From positions 218,835-282,834 of the forward strand of contig JBIOWE010000006.1 in the NCBI GenBank assembly GCA_044868145.1: 64,000 nucleotides of DNA, read 5' to 3'. Origin of the DNA: Patescibacteria group bacterium (GTDB lineage: Bacteria; Patescibacteriota; Patescibacteriia; UBA10025; JBIOWE01). The translations under genes and the position numbers were made by a program. Shown here piece after piece: positions 19,211-49,869 of the stretch. The notes under the pieces are model-generated. The model was not told the origin of the DNA. It worked only from the letters and a program-made list of their open reading frames with translations, and did not search any database. Numbering within the stretch: position 1 is the stretch's first letter; every line of letters begins with the position of its first letter.

Positions 19211-20587
19211 TTATTTTATCGGTAAGTTAAAAGGTTTAGGCGCGGTGCGCGCTGCATATACCGGTGAGGTTGGCGCAATTTGCTGGCCAGTTGGCAAGCG
19301 AATAGGTGGGCGTGCCTTCTTTGTTTCCGTACGCTGCACTGCGGGCACTTTAACCGTTTCGACGGGGAAGTGCCAGAGACTTGCTAGTTCTTCCACGTTC
19401 AGGATCATGGTAGTTCTTCCGCGTCTGAGTGCGCGCGATCGATAGCCCCAGAGGATTCTGCGTTGACGCGTAAGGATACGTTGCTTGATGAAGAAATAAT
19501 CGGCGGTCGACATCGTCTTTTTATGCGGGATAATGCTGTTTAAGTCCTGTGTGTTGAACTGGTTCATTGCACCGGATAAGGCGTTCGCTGCCTTTACCTT
19601 GTCGTAAACGTCTCTACGCGCGAAGTACACGAGTCGAATCTTAGTTTTAAATGCTAATCTGCCAATTTTGTATCCGATTGCTTCGACGATATTACGTTCT
19701 GACGGCGGCATGTGCTGCATAAGAGACGGCAGCTTTTGGTCTGTTTTTCGCGTTTGCTCGAACTCGGAAGGGGCTATGATAGAGGCGGTCAGCGATTCGG
19801 TAATGCCCTGCGTAACTTGCCGAGGAATGTATGTCCAATCTTCGGACTGCGACGACTTTGCGCCTATCAGTTTTTTAATCAAAGTAACGCCTTTTCGTGC
19901 CCAGTCCGCAGCGAGCGGAGCGACAATGATTTGAAACCATACTTGTTCCGTAGGACCCAGCCGGCTTATCATTTCGAGAAACGACGCCATAGGATCCATG
20001 AAGGTTTGAGTCAGTGAATGCTCGAACATCGGGTATGTACGAATGGGATACGGATCGGATTTTGTGAAACGGTATTCCGTCCCCCAAAGGTCATAGTCCT
20101 TGTGCGGCAATTCAAGGGGTCTTGGCATCATGTCGACATAATCTTCGATTTCCGTGATTTCGGCATCAGGGTATTGTGCGTAGATGGATGCTTCCACCAG
20201 GTCCCGGAATTTTACAGGTGTGCGAATGGCAAATTGGATATACCCGGCGATTCCGATAATCTCGAAACTAATTGCGTTCGCGTCTTGGGTGTAACCTTTC
20301 CCATAGCGATCCCAGATTGTGCCCTTCCGGATGGTGCCGTAAATATGTTCAAACAAATGCTCTACGGCTTTTGGGCTTTGTTCGTTCAATTTAGGTATGT
20401 CAAGAGCAAGGATTGTGTGCTCGATAGAAAATTCATATTTATTGCGAATGTATGTCTTCCATCCGTCCCAGATTCCAAGGAGTATCGTAATAAGAATTAA
20501 AATCCATCCCCCGCTTTGGATAAGAAGCCAGGTGATGACAAATGGGTTTTGAGCAAGCTGGAATGCAGTTAGATCGAGTTCGATCAT
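19211..20587 (-). CDS. Membrane protein of unknown function (N-terminal TM), translationally coupled to the T4CP-like ATPase
   Basis: TM helix WILILITILLGIW near the N-terminus. The stop/start overlaps with both the upstream and downstream genes. Confidence 0.5.
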   Translation of the reverse strand: MIELDLTAFQLAQNPFVITWLLIQSGGWILILITILLGIWDGWKTYIRNKYEFSIEHTILALDIPKLNEQSPKAVEHLFEHIYGTIRKGTIWDRYGKGYTQDANAISFEIIGIAGYIQFAIRTPVKFRDLVEASIYAQYPDAEITEIEDYVDMMPRPLELPHKDYDLWGTEYRFTKSDPYPIRTYPMFEHSLTQTFMDPMASFLEMISRLGPTEQVWFQIIVAPLAADWARKGVTLIKKLIGAKSSQSEDWTYIPRQVTQGITESLTASIIAPSEFEQTRKTDQKLPSLMQHMPPSERNIVEAIGYKIGRLAFKTKIRLVYFARRDVYDKVKAANALSGAMNQFNTQDLNSIIPHKKTMSTADYFFIKQRILTRQRRILWGYRSRALRRGRTTMILNVEELASLWHFPVETVKVPAVQRTETKKARPPIRLPTGQQIAPTSPVYAARTAPKPFNLPIK

Positions 20588-21726
20588 GATGTTTTTTGTT
20601 CCGGTATTTTTTTTGTTTTAACGGTGTATTTTCCGTCTTGGAGACGCGCAAACCGGTCTTTATTGGTAAGGGCAAGAACAATCGTATTTTCTTTCACAAC
20701 CCGGCGCTCAAGCACTTTTTTGACCAAATCGTTTCGTGTCAGTGGCTGTTCGGCTTCAAGGAGTATCTGCTCAATCACTTCAGCCACAACGCCAGGTTTA
20801 TATCCCCATTCCTTGAGAGCATACATACCTCGGCCAACGAGAACATACTGGCCATTGAGAATAAGTTCATTATGAACGGTTGGCGGGTGAGCTCTACGTT
20901 TGTCGAAGTGTATCTCATTAATTCTTTTTGTGATTTCCGTAAAGTGCATGGGGCGCCCGGTTTTCTTTAGGATCAGGTATATCTTATCGTTCATGCGCTT
21001 CGGTTTAATGGTCCCCCATTCCGCAAGACCATAGTCGCCAAAGGGGTTCTTCGCGATATGTTGACTTATTGCGAGATATGAATCAATAACATCGTCGGTA
21101 AAAAGTGATACGTGCGTCTTGTAAAGGTCGGATTCACGAAACGCTTTCACGAGAGCATCAAAGGCAATGGTCTTACCGTATTTCTTAATAATATCTTCGA
21201 GTATTGCTACGGATTGCTCAAACACACGTAAAGGTGCCGTTTGCACATGCCAGAAACGATGATATTGCTTGTCTGCCGGTTTTTGCTTGAAAACCTCCTG
21301 GAGAATTTCACTTAGGAGGAAGAGTGTATTATTTTTATTCGCGTCATTGATTCCCGTGACTTCGAGCAGCTTTGAGAGAAGAAGTTCCTCCGCCATGATT
21401 CTGCCGTGCTGTTCTAATATTTGGCTTATAGTAAGTTCGACTGGACGAACGATTTGCTGAAACATTTTTTGTCCTTTGATTTTCGTCGTGCCAGTTTTTT
21501 CAATCTGACGGATCCGTTCGCGCGTCACAGAATAGGTCGCTCCGATTTGTTCAAGTGTTTCTTCTGGTTTGCCAGTAAGTCCGAAACGTCGACGCAAAAC
21601 GTCCTCTTCACGGGGCAGAAGAGGTTTCAGTAATTGGTTGACTACCTCAACAGGATTGAATTGTTCAATGTTGCTTACCTGTTGGCTCTGTATTATTTTT
21701 TCGAGGATTGAATTTTTTTCTTCCAT
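20584..21726 (-). CDS. Sigma-70 region-4-like HTH domain protein with a ~280-aa C-terminal domain of unknown function (not a complete sigma factor)
   Basis: LPREEDVLRRRFGLTGKPEETLEQIGATYSVTRERIRQIEKTG matches sigma70 region 4.2. No region 2 is present. The likely start is MEEKNS at 21726, because the promoter at 21766-21794 lies inside the longer ORF-track start (21786). Confidence 0.55.
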   Translation of the reverse strand: MEEKNSILEKIIQSQQVSNIEQFNPVEVVNQLLKPLLPREEDVLRRRFGLTGKPEETLEQIGATYSVTRERIRQIEKTGTTKIKGQKMFQQIVRPVELTISQILEQHGRIMAEELLLSKLLEVTGINDANKNNTLFLLSEILQEVFKQKPADKQYHRFWHVQTAPLRVFEQSVAILEDIIKKYGKTIAFDALVKAFRESDLYKTHVSLFTDDVIDSYLAISQHIAKNPFGDYGLAEWGTIKPKRMNDKIYLILKKTGRPMHFTEITKRINEIHFDKRRAHPPTVHNELILNGQYVLVGRGMYALKEWGYKPGVVAEVIEQILLEAEQPLTRNDLVKKVLERRVVKENTIVLALTNKDRFARLQDGKYTVKTKKIPEQKTS

Positions 21727-21765
21727 AAAATATGCAACGAAAACGTCATTTTTATTTTCGAACTT

Positions 21766-21794
21766 AGTATAGCATACTTTTGACATTGTGTCAA
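21766..21794 (-). promoter_or_regulatory. Consensus sigma70 promoter (minus strand): TTGACA, 17-nt spacer, TATACT
   Basis: -35 is the reverse complement of 21789-21794. -10 is the reverse complement of 21766-21771. It is preceded on the minus strand by a hairpin (ACCTTGTT..AACAAGGT, 21818-21841) plus a T-run that could terminate secDF. Confidence 0.6.
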
Positions 21795-21851: not shown

Positions 21852-22745
21852 TTACTTTCGCCGCCAACTATTCCAAACGACGAGCAGAGGTGAAGCGACG
21901 AAGATCGAAGAATAGGTGCCTGCCGTAATTCCGATAATGAGTGCTAGGATGAAATGTCGAGTAGTATCGCCGCCGAACGCCAAAAGTGCAAGGAGAACAA
22001 GCAGCGTGGTGAACGATGTGCTGAGCGATCGCACGAGGGTTTGGTTCACGCTTCGATTCACGATTTCTTCGAAAGGTTCTCCATGCGAGGTCAACAATTG
22101 TTCACGGATACGGTCGAAGACAACGATAGTGTCGTGTACCGAGAAACCGAGAACGGTCAGAAGGGCAGAAACGAACAGACTATCGACCTGCACGTGAAAA
22201 AATCTTCCTAAGAGCGAGAATACACCAATAACAATAAAAACGTCGTGAACTAGCGCGACAACAGCGCACGCCCCATAGACCCATGAGGGTACCGGTCCAG
22301 CAGAAACTTTACGGAACGCGAAGGAGATATATAAAACGATGAATATAAGTACCAGGATGATAGCGATGACCGCGCGATGTTGTAATTCCTTGCCAAGCGT
22401 TGGGCCAATTGATTCAAAGCTTTTTTCTTGGACGTTGCCAAATTGTTCGGTTAGCTTGCTGAGGATTTCGTCTTTTGTCGCGTTGTCAATATTCTTCATA
22501 CGAATGGTCATCTCGTTTTGTCCGAGTGGCTGAATGACGGTTGTACCAAGATCCATGTCCTTAACAGTGTTTTCTACGGATTGGCTATCTGGTCTTGTTG
22601 CAGCGAACTCAACGCGCAGTAATGTGCCTCCCGTAAAGTCTATCCCGAGCGGTAAGCCCCAGATAAATAAAGAAATAAGGCCGGGGACGAGTAATAACCC
22701 CGAGAGAATGAAGAAGAAATTTCTTTTTTGGATAATCCGATACAT
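21852..22745 (-). CDS. secF: Protein translocase subunit SecF
   Basis: GIDFTGGTLLRVEF motif and 6 TM helices. Start probably at MYRIIQ (22745). Confidence 0.85.
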   Translation of the reverse strand: MYRIIQKRNFFFILSGLLLVPGLISLFIWGLPLGIDFTGGTLLRVEFAATRPDSQSVENTVKDMDLGTTVIQPLGQNEMTIRMKNIDNATKDEILSKLTEQFGNVQEKSFESIGPTLGKELQHRAVIAIILVLIFIVLYISFAFRKVSAGPVPSWVYGACAVVALVHDVFIVIGVFSLLGRFFHVQVDSLFVSALLTVLGFSVHDTIVVFDRIREQLLTSHGEPFEEIVNRSVNQTLVRSLSTSFTTLLVLLALLAFGGDTTRHFILALIIGITAGTYSSIFVASPLLVVWNSWRRK

Positions 22746-22746
22746 A

Positions 22747-24441
22747 TTAGTGGGTGTTTTTCTGAGTTTCACGCAGCCCAAATAATTTACCTTTTTTTTG
22801 CAGATGTTCTGTTAAAAGAAGGCGCATGAATGTCCTGGTAATTGTTATTGCAGAGAACATGCTGACGAGAATCCCGATAGCAAGTGTTATGGCAAATCCC
22901 TTAATGACTGATGTACCAAACCACGCGAGAATGAGGCATGAAAGAAGACTCGAGGCATTTGAGTCGCGTATGGACGGCCAAGCTCGCTTGAACCCCTCTT
23001 CTATAGCCTGCGCCAGTGTTCTTCCCGCTCGTAATTCCTCGCGCGTCCGCTCGAAGATCAAAATATTCGCGTCAACGGCCATGCCTATCGACAGTATAAA
23101 TCCTGCCACCCCGGCCAAGGACAGTGTAATGGATAGAAGTTTGAACAACATGAGCGCAATGAGCGCGTAGAGCGTTAGGGCGACAACCGATAACAACCCG
23201 GGTAGTCGATAGTACACAATCATGAACACGGAGACGAACAGTAGCCCGAGAATGCCAGCGAGAAAACTGCGTTCAACCGATATTTTTCCAAGAGTCGGGC
23301 CAACGTTGTTTTGGCTCGCCAAGCTAATGGGCACTGGGAGCGCACCCGCGTTTAACCGTTGGGCCAATTGCTTTGCTTCATCAAGCGTAAACTTGCCGGT
23401 GATGACTGCCTGACCACCACTGATTTTTTCATTCACGCGAGGAAGAGATATAGGGCTCCCGTCAAGAAAGATGCCTACTACTTTTCCGACGTTGCGCTGC
23501 GTAATTTCCTCAAATAGCTTCGAACCCTCGCTGTCGAATTGCAATGAAACTTGAGGCTCCCCAGTGTTTTGATCGAACTGCACGGTGGCCGATTTGAGTT
23601 GTTTGCCTGTCAGTTGTGTCGGAGAAAAATCTGAAGCCTGATCAGGGTTTAGTGACTTTTTTATAAATAAAATATGGCTCGAGCGAACTTCGCGCACGCC
23701 GTTGTTATTGCGTTCGTCAGTTTTTTTGATGATGTGGTATCCGAACTGACTTTCTACGACTTCCGTGTAGACCTTTCCCGTCTCAAGCTTATCGAAGATG
23801 ATGTCCTCAAATTCCGGAACGAGTTGGCCGCGCTGCGTAAAATCAAGGTCTCCGCCTTTTTTCGAGCCATCCTGCGTACTGGTATTACCCGGATCTTCAG
23901 AAAACTCGTCGGCGAGTTTCGCAAAGTCTTCACCTGCAAGCGCGCGTTTGAGAACGTCCTCCGCTTTTTTCTTCTGGCTAGCATTGAACGTTTCTCTGCT
24001 TGCTTTTTCTTCATCCGAAAGTGGGGCTACTTCTTTTTGCTCTTTGAATTCAAGGAGAGGAGTTTCCCCGATAAGGAGTATCGCTTCATTGACGTCTTGG
24101 ATACCTGGTAATTCAACGATAACCCGCCAGTTATCGCCTACTTTTGTGGTTTGAACAACTGGTTCGGAAACGCCAAACGCATTGACTCGACGTTCGATGA
24201 CATCTCGCACGCCGTCAAGCGCTCCTTGTCGGTCCGACGCAGGAATATTGGATACATCTGCATCGTACACAAGGCGCGTTCCTCCGAGCAGATCAAGGCC
24301 GAGCTTTACTTTCAGCTCTTTGGTGAATGAACCGATTTTTATGTTCGGACCTTTTGGCCAGTCGACAGTGCCCGCGAGAATAGCAATGACGACTATGATG
24401 CCGAACGTCAGCCAAACTCGTTTACGGAGAGTCATAATCAA
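22747..24441 (-). CDS. secD: Protein translocase subunit SecD with a parvulin (PpiC-type PPIase) domain inserted in periplasmic loop P1
   Basis: SecD TM1 and TM2-6 core are present. Inside P1: EDFAKLADEFSEDPGNTSTQDGSKKGGDLDFTQRGQLVPEFEDIIFDKLETGKVYTEVVESQFGYHIIK, which matches the PpiC/PrsA/SurA parvulin signature. Confidence 0.8.
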   Translation of the reverse strand: MIMTLRKRVWLTFGIIVVIAILAGTVDWPKGPNIKIGSFTKELKVKLGLDLLGGTRLVYDADVSNIPASDRQGALDGVRDVIERRVNAFGVSEPVVQTTKVGDNWRVIVELPGIQDVNEAILLIGETPLLEFKEQKEVAPLSDEEKASRETFNASQKKKAEDVLKRALAGEDFAKLADEFSEDPGNTSTQDGSKKGGDLDFTQRGQLVPEFEDIIFDKLETGKVYTEVVESQFGYHIIKKTDERNNNGVREVRSSHILFIKKSLNPDQASDFSPTQLTGKQLKSATVQFDQNTGEPQVSLQFDSEGSKLFEEITQRNVGKVVGIFLDGSPISLPRVNEKISGGQAVITGKFTLDEAKQLAQRLNAGALPVPISLASQNNVGPTLGKISVERSFLAGILGLLFVSVFMIVYYRLPGLLSVVALTLYALIALMLFKLLSITLSLAGVAGFILSIGMAVDANILIFERTREELRAGRTLAQAIEEGFKRAWPSIRDSNASSLLSCLILAWFGTSVIKGFAITLAIGILVSMFSAITITRTFMRLLLTEHLQKKGKLFGLRETQKNTH

Positions 24442-24506: not shown

Positions 24507-25946
24507 CTAGTCATGCACAATGACGGTTGTGCCGACGCTTGCCCATTCATACAGTTTTTTTGAGTCGGCAAGCGATTGTCGCACGCACCCGTGCGAAACG
24601 CGAACGCCAAGGTGGTTTTCTCCCTCGTAGATCCTGCCGCCGGCAATTTTCCAATATGGCAGGGAGTGGATGCCATAGGCGCCATTACCGGCAAACGCCA
24701 TCCAATAGTCCATGTATAAGCTGTACGGTTTTGAATACGCGACAAGAATTTTATTGGTTGTTTTGAATGTCCCAAGCGGGGTGGGCATGCTCCACTTGCC
24801 AGTTGAAATACGGTGCTCGCCGATTTTCTGTCCATTTTCATAGTAGCGCAACATCTGCTCGGAAATATCAATATCAATGTATTTGGCTAGATCTTGTCTC
24901 CCTTCGGCAATTCGGCGTGTCGGTCCGACGATTAAGGTGTTATCGCCCGTACCAAAATCAGCTTCGGCTATGGAAACACCGCCGCGGAACTCTCTTTCAT
25001 AAGCGAAAAAGTTCATTGCGAGAGGTGTACCGTCAATTTCAAAGCTCCGTACGTGCGGCGCGCCTGTTTGACCCGCGGCCGCGACAATTTCGTCAAAGCC
25101 ATCATTGTCCACGTCGGCGCCAGTAACGGTTGCGCCTCCTGTAAATTGAGTTGGAAAGGCAGTAAACTGTCCGAGTACCTGGTTGGTTGAGAGTTTTATG
25201 ACTTTGATCCACGCGCTATCATAGCGGGCAACGGAGAAAATAAGTTCATCGTCGGGTCCGCCGTCAACATTTGCCGCGGCAAGGTTCACGCCGCCCTTGA
25301 AATCTTGATGGAATACGTAAAAGTCTTTGTTGAGGGATTGGCCAAAACGGTTAAAAACGCGAATATGCGGACCACCGCCTGCACCTGGCGCGGTAATAAT
25401 TTCTGGCAGGCCTGACCCATCAATGTCCGCAACGGCGACGTTGACGCCACCGCGAAATGTCGTGTCATACGCGAAAAATCCTGGGGTAAACACTGGTGTA
25501 CCGTATCGGTCAAAAATGCGCACCTGCGGTGCAGCCCCAAACTTTGTGCCGGTCACAATTTCCGCTTGTCCGTCTCCGTCCAGATCGCCGCAAGCAACAG
25601 TAACGCCGGCCCGCATCTTTTGGTCATATGCAAAAAAACCTGGGGTGAACACGGTTGCACCATCATGATTGAATATCCTAACCTGTGGACCGCCGCCCGG
25701 ACCAGCTCCCGTAATAATCTCGTCTATACCATCGCCGTCTAAATCGCAGGCCGTAACTGATGCACCGCCTCGGAAGATTTCCGGGTACGCAAGAAACGCG
25801 TGCTCCACAGTTCCACTAGTTGCGTCAATGATCTTTACCTCCGGCTCGCGCGTGTCCCCTGCGAGCGCCATTTTTGGTAACAAAAAAAGTATTGCGCTTA
25901 CAAAAGCCAATACTCCTAATGCTTCGAATACTTCCCTTTTGCTCAT
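24507..25946 (-). CDS. Secreted FG-GAP (integrin-alpha-like) beta-propeller repeat protein fused to a C-terminal L,D-transpeptidase (YkuD) domain
   Basis: Signal peptide. Six or more repeats of DxDGDGxxE/FG-GAP type (CDLDGDGIDEIITG, CGDLDGDGQAEIVTG, ADIDGSGLPEIITA, ...). C-terminal catalytic motif VRVSHGCVRQ, typical of YkuD L,D-transpeptidases. Confidence 0.75.
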   Translation of the reverse strand: MSKREVFEALGVLAFVSAILFLLPKMALAGDTREPEVKIIDATSGTVEHAFLAYPEIFRGGASVTACDLDGDGIDEIITGAGPGGGPQVRIFNHDGATVFTPGFFAYDQKMRAGVTVACGDLDGDGQAEIVTGTKFGAAPQVRIFDRYGTPVFTPGFFAYDTTFRGGVNVAVADIDGSGLPEIITAPGAGGGPHIRVFNRFGQSLNKDFYVFHQDFKGGVNLAAANVDGGPDDELIFSVARYDSAWIKVIKLSTNQVLGQFTAFPTQFTGGATVTGADVDNDGFDEIVAAAGQTGAPHVRSFEIDGTPLAMNFFAYEREFRGGVSIAEADFGTGDNTLIVGPTRRIAEGRQDLAKYIDIDISEQMLRYYENGQKIGEHRISTGKWSMPTPLGTFKTTNKILVAYSKPYSLYMDYWMAFAGNGAYGIHSLPYWKIAGGRIYEGENHLGVRVSHGCVRQSLADSKKLYEWASVGTTVIVHD

Positions 25947-27011: not shown

Positions 27012-29756
27012 TTACTTGAGCTGCGTTATTCTTTGACGATGCTCATCAGTGTTTAGCAGGCCGCACTTCTTGTACTTCTTGCCGCTGCCGCACGGGCAAG
27101 GGTCGTTACGTCCGATTTTCTTTCCTTCTGACGTTTTGAGATTGCCGGCGATTGTTTGCGACGTGCCTTTTGGCGTAGGTTGCTGCGTTTGGAGAGGCGA
27201 CGACACGTTTGTTGCTGTTTTTTCCGGCGCGATGAGCGTAACGCCCTGACGCGCTAAGGGTGTCTGGATGGAGGTTTGCGCCAGCGTTATTTTGAAAATC
27301 GAATACGCAATCTGTTTTTGGATGTTGGACATGAGTTCGTTGAATAACCTGTATGCCTCTTTTTTATATTCGACAAGCGGATCGCGCTGACCGTAGCCGC
27401 GCAAGCCAATCCCCTGTCGCAAATGATCCATGATGGTTAAATGTTCGATCCAGAGCGTGTCTATGGTGCGAAGGTACAGTGCATGTTCTATTTGGCGTAT
27501 ACGATTCGCATCCCCGATCGATTTTTCCAGCTGGTCATAGGATAATTGAGCAAGTTGCGTGAAGTACTTCAGTAAGGCGTCGCGCGCATGCATGTCGGAG
27601 GTTTTATCTCCGGCTTTTTCACGAATTTTCTCCATGGCAATGCGCTGCTTTAAATCAATGGGAAATATCGTATCTACCGATTCATAGATTTCATCGATAT
27701 TCCACGTTGCCGCATTATCGGCTGACGTGTGGAAGGAAACGATATGGTCAATTTCATCGTTGATATGGCCCAGAATAATTTGTCGGATTGTCGCGTCTTT
27801 TCTTTGCCCAGCGGAAATTTCCAAGATTTCTCTTCTCCGTTTGTACACAACCGTTCGGTGCTTGTTCATGACGTCATCGTATTCGACCAAGTGCTTGCGA
27901 ATGTCAAAATTATGGCCTTCCACTTTTTTCTGCGCCGCCTCGATTGAACGGCTCACTAACTTATTCTCGATCGGCATGTCATCAGGAATGCCCAGTCTTG
28001 TCATGAGCGTTTTCATTCGGTCCGAGGCAAAGATGCGCATTAAGTCGTCTTCAAGTGAGACGTAGAATTGGGACGATCCTTGATCACCTTGCCTGCCTGA
28101 TCTACCGCGTAATTGGTTATCAATACGCCGGGCCTCGTGACGTTCTGTACCAAGAACGTGTAATCCCCCTAGCTCCTTTACTTTTTGCTGCTCCGCAGGG
28201 TCTTGTGGGTTGCCGCCGAGAATGATGTCAACGCCGCGGCCAGCGATGTTGGTTGCAATCGTAACGCCGCCTAGTTTCCCGGCCTGTGCGATGGTCGCGG
28301 CCTCGCGTTCGTGCTGTTTCGCATTTAAGACGTTATGCGGTATGCCTTGTTGCGTCAAAAGTGCGCTCAAGACTTCATTTCTCTCGATGGAGATAGTGCC
28401 TACGAGAACCGGTTGGCCGAGTTCATGCCGCATTTTAATTTCACGGACGATCGCCTGGAATTTTCCTTCCTCGGTTTTATACACGCGGTCAGGGTCGTCC
28501 TGGCGAATCATTGGTTTATGGGTTGGGACGACAATTACCTCGAGGTTGTAAATTTTGGCGAATTCTTCAGCCTCTGTCGCCGCGGTTCCCGTCATGCCCG
28601 CTAGTTTGCCGTACAAGCGAAAGTAGTTTTGGAACGTAATGGTCGCCAGCGTTTGGCTTTCTTGCTTGATTGAGACATTTTCTTTCGCTTCAATTGCTTG
28701 GTGCAGTCCATCGGAATACCGACGGCCCTGCATTAGCCTGCCCGTAAATTCATCGACGATAATTACTTCCCCGTCCTTCACGACATAATCTCGATCTCGT
28801 TTGAACAATGCTTTTGCGCGCAGCGCTTGTTCGATATGATGAAGCGTTTCGATGCCGCCGGCCTCATAAATATTTTTCATTCCAAGGAATTCTTCCATCC
28901 TAGTTATGCCCTGGTCCGTCAGTGTGGATGCGCGCATTTTTTCGTCAACGTTGTAATCCTGGCCTTCTTGCAGGCGCTCCACAAGCTTCGCGAATCGGTA
29001 ATATTGCTCTGTTGATTCTTCCGCGGGCGCGGAAATAATAAGCGGCGTCCGCGCTTCGTCGATCAAAATGCTGTCTACCTCGTCGACGATGGCGAATACT
29101 AATTCGCGCTGCACCATGTATTCGAGGGTTGGGGCCATGTTGTCTCTCAGGTAGTCGAATCCGAACTCGTTATTGGTTCCATAAAGCACGTCGGAGGCAT
29201 ACGCCTCTTTACGGCTGACCGGGCGAAGATTTTGCATCTCTTGTTTTTCGGTTTGGAAGGTCGGATCAAAGATAAATGCTTGTTCGTGCTGGATGCACCC
29301 AACGCTAATGCCCAGGGTATGATAGACCGGACCCATCCACTGTGTGTCTCGTTTTGCGAGATAGTCGTTTACGGTAATGATGTGAACACATTTTCCCTGC
29401 AAGGTGTTCAGATATGCGGGTAGTGTCGCGACAAGTGTTTTTCCCTCACCCGTTTTCATTTCGGCAATTTTACCATGGTGCAGAACCATACCCCCCATGA
29501 GTTGCACGTCAAAATGTCTCATTTTAATTGATCGTTTTGCTGCCTCTCGGACGCTGGCGAACGCCTCGGGCAGAATTACGTCAAGCCCTTCCTTCTTGTT
29601 GACTCTTTTTCGAAATTCGTCTGTTTTTTGTTTTAATTGTTCTAACGTAAAACTCTCGAACGTATGTTCGAGTTTATTGATGCTATCGACGAGAGGCTGG
29701 AGTTTCTGGGCCTCTCGTTTATTTTGATCTCCAAATAATTTAGCAAAAACTGCCAT
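27012..29756 (-). CDS. secA: Preprotein translocase ATPase SecA with C-terminal zinc-binding motif
   Basis: DEAD-like motor domains and a C-terminal CPCGSGKKYKKC. Confidence 0.95.
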   Translation of the reverse strand: MAVFAKLFGDQNKREAQKLQPLVDSINKLEHTFESFTLEQLKQKTDEFRKRVNKKEGLDVILPEAFASVREAAKRSIKMRHFDVQLMGGMVLHHGKIAEMKTGEGKTLVATLPAYLNTLQGKCVHIITVNDYLAKRDTQWMGPVYHTLGISVGCIQHEQAFIFDPTFQTEKQEMQNLRPVSRKEAYASDVLYGTNNEFGFDYLRDNMAPTLEYMVQRELVFAIVDEVDSILIDEARTPLIISAPAEESTEQYYRFAKLVERLQEGQDYNVDEKMRASTLTDQGITRMEEFLGMKNIYEAGGIETLHHIEQALRAKALFKRDRDYVVKDGEVIIVDEFTGRLMQGRRYSDGLHQAIEAKENVSIKQESQTLATITFQNYFRLYGKLAGMTGTAATEAEEFAKIYNLEVIVVPTHKPMIRQDDPDRVYKTEEGKFQAIVREIKMRHELGQPVLVGTISIERNEVLSALLTQQGIPHNVLNAKQHEREAATIAQAGKLGGVTIATNIAGRGVDIILGGNPQDPAEQQKVKELGGLHVLGTERHEARRIDNQLRGRSGRQGDQGSSQFYVSLEDDLMRIFASDRMKTLMTRLGIPDDMPIENKLVSRSIEAAQKKVEGHNFDIRKHLVEYDDVMNKHRTVVYKRRREILEISAGQRKDATIRQIILGHINDEIDHIVSFHTSADNAATWNIDEIYESVDTIFPIDLKQRIAMEKIREKAGDKTSDMHARDALLKYFTQLAQLSYDQLEKSIGDANRIRQIEHALYLRTIDTLWIEHLTIMDHLRQGIGLRGYGQRDPLVEYKKEAYRLFNELMSNIQKQIAYSIFKITLAQTSIQTPLARQGVTLIAPEKTATNVSSPLQTQQPTPKGTSQTIAGNLKTSEGKKIGRNDPCPCGSGKKYKKCGLLNTDEHRQRITQLK

Positions 29757-48779: not shown

Positions 48780-49336
48780 TATCACTCAACTTGCTGAGTC
48801 CTCAGGAAAAATCTTCCCTTCGTACGGATCGCATGTTTGCCATGGCACGCACGTTAGGCGTAATGATCCTTGTCGTCTTAGCGGTTTTGACCGTTATTTT
48901 CTATTTTGAAAAAAATGTTTTACAAAATAACTATTCTATTCTACAAAGCGAAGGCCGCGGTTATGAATCCATCGTTTTGACCTCTCACGGCGCAACCCTT
49001 GAAGCTAGCATTGTCGCCCTGAACGAGGATATGGCCAAAGTGCAGCAAATCCAAAAAGGATTTATTACATGGTCAAAATTCTTTCAATACTTGAGCGATA
49101 GAAGGCAAAACACAATCCAAATCACTTCAATAGTGCTAGATCAAGCAGACTCATCTTTCTTATTGGAAGGTCGCGCAAAAACTCGCTCGGATATTTTGTC
49201 ATTCCAAGATTTTCTCAATGCCTCGCCATTATTTGATGACGTTTCTGCCCCGATTTCGAATCTCACAGAGCGCGAGAACGTTGATTTTTCATTTAGCGGA
49301 AAATTAAACCTAGCAACGCTCGCATCATTACCATGA
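48776..49336 (+). CDS. pilN: PilN-like bitopic pilus alignment protein
   Basis: Single TM followed by a periplasmic/extracellular domain. Position after pilM. Confidence 0.6.
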   Translation: MISLNLLSPQEKSSLRTDRMFAMARTLGVMILVVLAVLTVIFYFEKNVLQNNYSILQSEGRGYESIVLTSHGATLEASIVALNEDMAKVQQIQKGFITWSKFFQYLSDRRQNTIQITSIVLDQADSSFLLEGRAKTRSDILSFQDFLNASPLFDDVSAPISNLTERENVDFSFSGKLNLATLASLP

Positions 49337-49869
49337 AAAATGATTTGCTAAAAAATGCCGGCATTATTGGCGGAATCACCTTGCTTTTCATTGGTGACAT
49401 TGTATTTTTTTTGTTGCCGCAACACAAGACGGTCGCATCATTGGCTGATAAGATTTACGATGAGCGCGTGCATGTGGAGTTAGTAAAGCGCCAAGCCTCC
49501 TCTCTCGTTGAAACGCAAGCGGGCTTTCATGCGATTGAAAGCGACGCAAAGCAACTCGAGGTTGCCTTTATTCCAAAAACTGAAACAATTCAGTTTATTT
49601 CTTCATTAGAATCTCTGGCTTCGGACCGTGGTATTACGCAAAAGATATCTCTTGAAGGACTTACCTTACCTTCTAAGACAAGTAAAACCCAGGCAGAGGT
49701 TCAGGAAGTTCCTCTTGAGTTATCATTGTCTGGTTCCCCATCGTTGGTTATTTCATATATCCGAGACCTTGAGCTTTTGCCGCATTATATTAATATAAAC
49801 AAAATAGAGATGTCTGGCGCTGATGAAAGCATTACGGCAAGAGTATCAGCCAAAACTTTCTGGCGATGA
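49333..49869 (+). CDS. pilO: PilO-like bitopic pilus alignment protein
   Basis: N-terminal TM plus coiled coil. Position after pilN. Confidence 0.55.
   Translation: MKNDLLKNAGIIGGITLLFIGDIVFFLLPQHKTVASLADKIYDERVHVELVKRQASSLVETQAGFHAIESDAKQLEVAFIPKTETIQFISSLESLASDRGITQKISLEGLTLPSKTSKTQAEVQEVPLELSLSGSPSLVISYIRDLELLPHYININKIEMSGADESITARVSAKTFWR

Follow-up and report, generated by a model that had tools for sequence, protein, structure and literature searches.

Bacterial SecDF draws on the proton-motive force (PMF) to swing its P1 head; the head binds the preprotein as it emerges and aids its pulling and release. In passing between the F and I forms, the head turns by ~100 degrees on two links, one of them the connector that joins it to the P1 base (PMC8669966). 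Foldases with parvulin domains have been placed close to this motor. PpiD contacts SecY (PMC8669966), SurA binds the SecYEG-SecDF-YidC holo-translocon, with both of its parvulin domains contacting the P1 head of I-form SecDF in 5/5 AlphaFold models (PMC9987972), and the Mycoplasma peptidyl-prolyl isomerase (PPIase) Mpn444 cross-links to SecD (bioRxiv 10.1101/2024.09.05.611430). For the contacts SurA-SecDF, PpiD-SecY and Mpn444-SecD, the evidence so far is either of low resolution or a prediction, and the handover of unfolded proteins from SecYEG to extracytoplasmic folding factors is still unsettled. Here we describe a SecD that carries a parvulin within its own chain, encoded in a 64,000-nucleotide stretch of a Patescibacteria group bacterium (contig JBIOWE010000006.1; this whole stretch is called the window below). 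The parvulin sits in the base-to-head connector, and it appears to be circularly permuted.

SecD and the site of insertion

The open reading frame (ORF) begins with a TTG, two codons past which lies an ATG (24435) that is the probable start of secD; the identical database protein (P0001) begins at this ATG and has 562 residues. With 395.6 bits against a cut-off of 244.4, the protein passes the NCBIfam SecD model TIGR01129. Pfam finds, in order, SecD_1st, a parvulin (matched by the Rotamase profiles), SecDF_P1_head and SecD_SecF_C, with PF21760, PF22599 and PF02355 each above the gathering score. A full-length AlphaFold2 model was built on a 71-sequence alignment; its local confidence (predicted local distance difference test, pLDDT) is given below where it matters, whereas its overall predicted template modelling score (pTM) is only 0.51, and it gives the parvulin no defined orientation relative to SecD. 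The features, from the N-terminus on and with TM for transmembrane segment, are:

22747-24441, minus strand: secD ORF, 564 residues from the TTG at 24441, with the stop codon TAA at 22749-22747
24361-24423, minus strand: TM1, residues 7-27 (helix 5-25 in the model), preceded by the basic N-terminus MTLRKR
24034-24213, minus strand: N-terminal part of the P1 base (SecD_1st, Pfam), residues 77-136, ending in the hinge strand LLEFKE (model strand 130-135)
23629-24033, minus strand: whole insert, residues 137-271, not present in compact SecDs
23938-24015, minus strand: extended helix α1, residues 143-168, 26 residues with pLDDT 87-97, joining the SecD hinge to the parvulin on its N-terminal side
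23713-24003, minus strand: parvulin core from α1 to β4, residues 147-243 (Rotamase_3, profile positions 29-115 only)
23893-23895 and 23734-23736, minus strand: core residues D183 and H236 (in GYH), joined in the core by L199 (in GGDL) and F211
23662-23697, minus strand: permuted strand β1′, VREVRSSHILFI, residues 249-260, in a hairpin with β4 (234-246)
23674-23676, minus strand: catalytic-type His256, within the β1′ strand
23629-23661, minus strand: linker back into SecD, residues 261-271 (pLDDT 69; majority-residue frequency 0.34)
23332-23619, minus strand: P1 head (SecDF_P1_head, Pfam E 3e-32), residues 275-370
22816-23322, minus strand: TM2-TM6 domain (SecD_SecF_C, Pfam), residues 374-542

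Judging from the basic N-terminus, TM1 and the topology of solved SecDF structures, P1 and the parvulin would lie on the outer face of the membrane. Asp457 in the TM4 motif GMAVDAN (23071-23073) is invariant in 71/71 homologs (57-68% identity, the set used for all conservation figures below) and lines up with AAVDGN in the SecDF of T. thermophilus; it is presumably equivalent to the proton-pathway residue D519 of E. coli.

When the protein is aligned to T. thermophilus SecDF (3aqp), residues 41-140 fall on Thermus residues 29-123 and residues 268-541 on 151-424, leaving a base-to-head gap of ~127 residues in the query vs 27 in Thermus. The insert delimited by the P1 base (77-136) and P1 head (275-370) profiles comprises ~135 residues, where compact relatives have 0-40. 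Parvulin-free SecDs among the 150 best representatives at 50% identity are ~410-470 residues long, and their base-to-head linkers have a median of 34 residues; in the most compact relatives SecD_1st directly abuts P1_head (133/134 in P0165). Because of this abutment, and because the head match of compact relatives begins at profile position 16-20 just as in the query, no part of SecD has been replaced; by these alignments, the parvulin has been inserted cleanly into the base-to-head connector, not into the head.

An initial annotation of this DNA had read the ORF as a SecD with a parvulin-type domain in P1, the extracytoplasmic loop that links TM1 to TM2, and had supposed that the loop without this domain would have the length of a compact SecD. 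The TIGR01129 and Rotamase matches, which go far beyond chance, bear out the first statement and the insert-free relatives the second. It had also placed the insertion in the periplasmic head, which holds for the P1 loop but not for the head itself, since both the compact relatives and the 3aqp alignment put it in the connector.

Strand order and active site of the parvulin

All three parvulin profiles of Pfam match the insert: Rotamase_3 at residues 147-243 (E 4.4e-20, 72.8 bits vs a cut-off of 22.5), Rotamase at 152-242 (E 2.3e-16, 61.0 bits vs 21.7) and Rotamase_2 at 148-242. The closest solved structures are PrsA parvulins in the PDB, which the insert matches at E-values of 1e-11 to 1e-14 (best 1.6e-14) and ~40% identity. 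Motifs that the initial annotation had quoted as a parvulin signature, FAKLADEFSEDPG, GGDLDF and SQFGYHIIK, are located within residues 173-239. The likeness does not extend to a whole PrsA: the NCBIfam PrsA models reach 50-58 bits against cut-offs of 343-361, over the parvulin part only, and the window SecD has no lipobox, no separate gene for the parvulin, and SecD sequence on either flank. Nor is it a SurA or PpiD, the SurA model NF008038 giving 34.9 bits against a cut-off of 394, again over the parvulin region only.

The matches to canonical parvulins are incomplete at their start. Rotamase is matched only from profile position 14, Rotamase_3 from position 29, and the isolated parvulin structures 1ZK6, 2M08 and 1JNS only from chain residue 12-13. 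The canonical β1 strand (xRASHILx), which bears one active-site His, was not found before α1; its motif is present behind β4, in ...SQFGYHIIKKTDERNNNGVREVRSSHILFIKK (residues 231-262), so that the order reads GYHIIKK-hairpin-VRSSHILF. Shifting residues 247-262 to the front in silico extended the Rotamase match to positions 1-97 of 97 and that of Rotamase_3 to start from position 15, with a gain of 2 to 4 bits, and solved parvulin domains are then aligned from chain residue 3-5 onward. After this rearrangement, EVRSSHIL falls on KIRASHIL of B. subtilis PrsA, EIKASHIL of 6XD8 and KIKCSHIL of 2M08. A control with a scrambled strand gave no extension in 1ZK6, 2M08, 4WO7 and 2M1I, reached residue 8 in 6XD8, and scored ~2-5 bits lower.

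The structure models show the same order. In the full-length model, residues 150-260 have pLDDT 90-97 and include a long hairpin in which 234-246 pair with 249-260 (pLDDT 95-97); a model of the isolated insert (residues 136-272) reaches pLDDT 94.8 and pTM 0.86, with the elements arranged as α1-α2-(α3)-β2-α4-β3-β4-β1′. This departs from the canonical parvulin topology β1-α1-α2-α3-β2-α4-β3-β4 in that β1 trails β4. The parvulin thus looks homologous to known ones but circularly permuted, with α1 first and β1 last in its sequence. In canonical parvulins, β1 lies antiparallel beside β4, and its N-terminus is near the C-terminus of β4; a β4-turn-β1 hairpin is therefore the natural permuted connection. 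It follows from the permuted order that the new termini lie at the site of the usual β1-α1 loop. In Pin1 this loop is the one that recognizes the substrate, next to the catalytic cleft, and it would thus be the cleft-proximal end of the domain that is attached to SecD, by the 26-residue helix at its start and by a variable 11-residue linker, modelled at lower confidence, at its end.

When the isolated insert model was compared with the PDB by Foldseek, no parvulin was matched (best E 0.16). Given sequence E-values of 1e-14 to 1e-20, we do not count this against homology; the permutation may affect the 3Di states, or the miss may be technical. The full model retrieved only SecDF and RND pumps among its top 50 PDB hits, which is uninformative on the insert.

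Catalytic positions were placed on the window protein through the PrsA alignment. We take H59, C113, S154 and H157 of Pin1 to correspond to H256, D183, F233 and H236, with D183 being the Asp that PrsA and Par14 also have at the C113 position; the Pin1 proline pocket L122/M130/F134 corresponds to L199/L207/F211. Both catalytic His, the Asp and the hydrophobic proline pocket are all present in the window protein. They are also well kept among the homologs: H236, I257 and L199 are found in 71/71, F211 in 69/71, H256 in 68/71 and D183 in 61/71, and 60/71 retain the full His-Asp-His set together with the pocket (L199, M/L207, F211). The mean majority-residue frequency is 0.63 in the parvulin core, compared with 0.75-0.80 in the SecD parts and 0.49 and 0.34 in the two linkers. 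The active site looks intact, and a built-in foldase is hence a reasonable reading. D183G is found in 10/71 homologs (P0088 and P0102 among them) and H256Q in 3/71; with the Asp lost in this minority, sometimes along with the β1 His, their sequences suggest a non-catalytic role, and catalysis may therefore be given up in some sub-lineages.

Distribution, variants and genomic setting

The initial annotation had called for a survey of SecD homologs, which finds the same insertion far beyond this genome. Parvulin and SecD Pfam domains occur together in 120/120 best matches among 90%-identity clusters, which the sources name plain 'SecD' of Patescibacteria or Kerfeldbacteria; the 71 of these that were aligned are all colinear through the insert. 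A parvulin is found at the base-to-head site in 66/150 best 50%-identity representatives and in 15/80 best species-representative genomes, the latter labelled Kerfeldbacteria, Moranbacteria, Parcubacteria, Peregrinibacteria and unclassified Patescibacteria; a few labels of metagenome-assembled genomes are implausible. No parvulin was found in SecD at loci labelled Saccharibacteria, Nomurabacteria, Uhrbacteria, Taylorbacteria, Daviesbacteria, Gastranaerophilales, Cyanobacteria or Chloroflexota. Parvulin-SecD is a widespread family trait of Patescibacteria and not the peculiarity of one genome. Neither this spread nor the permutation had been noticed in the initial annotation.

Two groups of records need comment here. 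SecDs of cyanobacteria, Gastranaerophilales and Chloroflexota with long matches were considered as carriers of the insert and rejected; they have no parvulin, and their long tblastn spans are otherwise caused. Loci titled Lysobacteraceae, Binatia or 'uncultured Gammaproteobacteria' (L003, L008, L010, L011 and L015) hold Patescibacteria-type parvulin-SecDs with 45-55% identity to that of the window, and are probably mis-binned contigs or automatic mislabels.

The insert itself comes in several forms:

(a) single permuted insert, 120-157 residues; the type of the window
(b) tandem insert, ~240-260 residues; a degenerate core A, a SHIL strand with His, an intact core B and, in most cases, another β1-like strand trailing it
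(c) inserts of 340-470 residues; a canonical parvulin plus further sequence
(d) SecDF single-chain fusions of 1000-1150 residues with a parvulin at the same junction (L024, L040, L012; P0151, P0163, P0197); Peregrinibacteria among the names

Core B of the tandem form is matched by Pfam Rotamase over positions 1-97, that is, in canonical order (residues 257-355 of P0122). In the tandem SecDs P0122, P0123, P0124, P0126 and P0133, as well as L006-L012 and L015, core A lacks the GYHII His and is followed by a KASHIL strand; their second trailing β1-like strand is often without the His. The large-insert relatives are named Peregrinibacteria or Patescibacteria. Among them, P0173, P0179, P0184, P0196, P0206 and P0266, of Peregrinibacteria type, have a canonical full-length parvulin with ~180 extra residues upstream, and the match of P0173 to the PrsA-like NCBIfam model NF000809 runs on past the parvulin, a hint of a complete PrsA-like chaperone module within SecD. 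L012 can be read through only under genetic code 25.

A rough neighbour-joining tree of the shared base, head and TM regions separates two large groups of parvulin-SecDs, and that of the window interleaves single, tandem and insert-free forms; the insert region has therefore been remodelled repeatedly. Tandem forms would be expected as intermediates if the permutation arose via duplication and deletion; alternatively, they could represent a canonical parvulin nested in the β4-β1′ hairpin. In layout, a tandem is either a pair of adjacent permuted units or this nested arrangement, with the hairpin then belonging to a permuted parvulin. The hinge sequence EFKEQKEV (residues 134-141, 24019-24042, minus strand) resembles EIKNEKEV just before the inter-core KASHIL in P0122; this likeness is possibly the footprint of a recombination or deletion that links single and tandem forms, or a coincidence.

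Neither a SecD-parvulin fusion nor a circularly permuted parvulin turned up in full-text searches of the literature, and the single paper to name both SecD and a rotamase in a CPR-like setting proved irrelevant. As far as these searches show, no natural circular permutation of a parvulin was described before this one. Both families are well known, and the raw domain combination is already visible in automated Pfam annotations; what is new is the architecture, the insertion point at the hinge, the permuted connectivity and the restriction to Patescibacteria. None of the curated NCBIfam models for SecD or SecDF includes a parvulin. The 993-position SecDF model NF009585 was considered as a possible exception, as its first alignment ran through the insert, and was rejected: parvulin-bearing SecDs match it only outside the insert, and the insert alone matches only PrsA, PpiC and SurA models.

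The motor partner of this SecD is encoded next to it, in a separate gene:

21852-22745, minus strand: secF, TIGR00966 295.5 bits (cut-off 160), the motor partner subunit

The ATG of secF (22745) lies 1 nt past the secD stop codon. The secA gene (27012-29756) is on the minus strand like secD and 2.6 kb upstream of it, and a NUDIX gene and a CYTH gene share the strand of secD and secA. Directly upstream of secD, 24507-25946 (minus strand) encodes a 479-residue protein with FG-GAP repeats and a C-terminal YkuD L,D-transpeptidase, an unusual pairing. Downstream of secF, 20584-21786 (minus strand) encodes a 400-residue protein whose sole domains are sigma-70 region 4 and HARE-HTH; it is overlapped by the gene at 19211-20587 (minus strand) for a 458-residue protein, which has a TM segment at its N-terminus and matches nothing in Pfam.

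SecD is the sole parvulin-bearing protein within the window. A second parvulin-like fragment at 49297-49866 (marginal, E 0.03) was rejected, as it belongs to PilO. In 80 related loci, no free-standing parvulin was found up to 4 kb from secD on either side. The argument of the initial annotation that separate chaperones had been lost, as no prsA is seen here, is not supported, since a 64-kb window says nothing on the whole genome.

A proposed role and comparison with known systems

We suggest that this SecD, with a single permuted parvulin in its base-to-head connector, is probably a membrane-tethered foldase or holdase built onto the proton-driven SecD-SecF export motor, at one parvulin per motor. 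The P1 head would hold and pull the unfolded chain from SecYEG, and the adjacent parvulin cleft would bind Xaa-Pro segments, speeding their cis/trans isomerization and shielding the chain. Such a domain would perform in cis the task that falls in trans to PrsA in monoderms and to SurA and PpiD/YfgM in E. coli. What we infer here is that the domain is enzymatically active, that it acts on Sec substrates, that it is coupled to head movement, and how its cleft is oriented. The SurA-SecDF and Mpn444-SecD contacts are two independent lines that fit this mechanism, the fusion being a covalent version of such a contact. We also entertain a bolder version, though we find it rather improbable: the fusion as a natural 'Rosetta stone' for direct action of parvulin foldases at the P1 head of SecD, in which the permutation turns the termini, and with them the cleft near the former β1-α1 loop, towards the hinge and the substrate groove of the head, so that the PMF-driven swing would feed the chain past the isomerase as an energy-coupled foldase, with the tandem forms as nested parvulins or duplication intermediates.

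We think it unlikely, but worth weighing, that the insert does not catalyse and serves for binding, as a holdase or in a purely structural way. It would then aid substrate capture or release or stabilize a conformation of P1, and prolyl isomerization would be irrelevant. The D183G and H256Q homologs would fit such a role, as would the clearly degenerate first core that tandem variants retain; the parvulin domains of PpiD and SurA-P1 are inactive, and PrsA function is independent of its PPIase activity, which favors it too. Against this, the His-Asp-His set and the pocket, kept in the window protein and in 60/71 homologs, would be unexpected without selection on catalysis. Less probable again is a canonical, non-permuted core with β1 supplied otherwise, in which case the trailing SHIL strand would be a linker and the vestige of a lost second parvulin copy. 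Its conservation in single-domain proteins (H256 96%, I257 100%) is unlike that of a vestigial linker, AlphaFold2 pairs 249-260 with β4 at pLDDT 95-97, and no His-bearing strand precedes α1, the strand 130-135 belonging to the SecD_1st base profile; what speaks for it is that the SHIL strand after core A in tandem variants doubles as the canonical β1 of core B (P0122, 257-355), along with the failure of Foldseek to match the insert model to a parvulin.

The site exactly on the hinge connector could also affect the transition between the F and I forms, and the full model leaves the orientation of the parvulin undefined; both would be compatible with a role in regulation or anchoring, in which the insert gates the movement of the P1 head, or binds the cell wall or surface proteins of the host of a probably episymbiotic cell, and does not act on Sec substrates. 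We regard this as very unlikely, as the conserved residues are those of a prolyl-peptide binding cleft and independent precedents tie parvulin foldases to SecDF. An artefact of assembly or annotation, such as contig chimerism or the joining of secD to a prsA-like gene by a frameshift, was considered only because the window resembles metagenomic DNA, and it has practically no standing: the insertion is in frame with SecD sequence on both sides, and >120 homologs keep it. The assemblies and sources of these homologs (NCBI, JGI, ENA, Logan) are independent, and several of the homologs lie on contigs >1 Mb. The homolog set, together with the 66/150 representatives and 15/80 species genomes, refutes it.

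A parvulin fused covalently to the SecD hinge offers independent comparative support for a functional link between foldases and SecDF. As one polypeptide that needs no lipoprotein anchor, it could serve as a simple, stoichiometric model for the coupling of a foldase to PMF-driven P1 movement, and a comparison of single, tandem and canonical variants among related genomes could show how permutations of this kind originate. For Patescibacteria, it would be an economical way of folding secreted and surface proteins with tiny genomes.

Compared with T. thermophilus and D. radiodurans SecDF (3AQP, 5YHF, 5XAM/5XAN/5XAP), to which it is ~27-31% identical, the window SecD has the same layout of TM1, P1 base, P1 head and TM2-6, keeps the TM4 Asp motif and has its SecF partner adjacent. 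It differs in having ~135 residues, including a whole parvulin, where the Thermus and Deinococcus proteins have ~27 between base and head, and in that SecD and SecF are separate genes. The closest sequence relatives of the insert are the Bacillus and Listeria PrsA proteins (4WO7, 1ZK6, 6VJ6, 6XD8), whose parvulin is likewise non-phospho-specific with Asp at the Pin1-C113 site. PrsA is extracytoplasmic, membrane-tethered and acts on proteins leaving SecYEG, as the window parvulin would. However, PrsA is a separate dimeric lipoprotein with an N/C chaperone domain and canonical strand order, whereas the insert has no lipobox, no such NC domain and permuted strands, and SecD itself is its anchor.

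The wall-less or monoderm minimal bacterium M. pneumoniae has parvulin-type surface PPIases, Mpn444 and Mpn436, for which folding of nascent exported chains has been proposed; these are separate, large, trimeric lipoproteins and not domains of SecD. SurA and PpiD/YfgM of E. coli are parvulin-containing chaperones at the periplasmic face of the translocon, with contacts that are non-covalent and transient and with some parvulin domains that are catalytically dead, while the parvulin of the window SecD is joined to its motor covalently and stoichiometrically.

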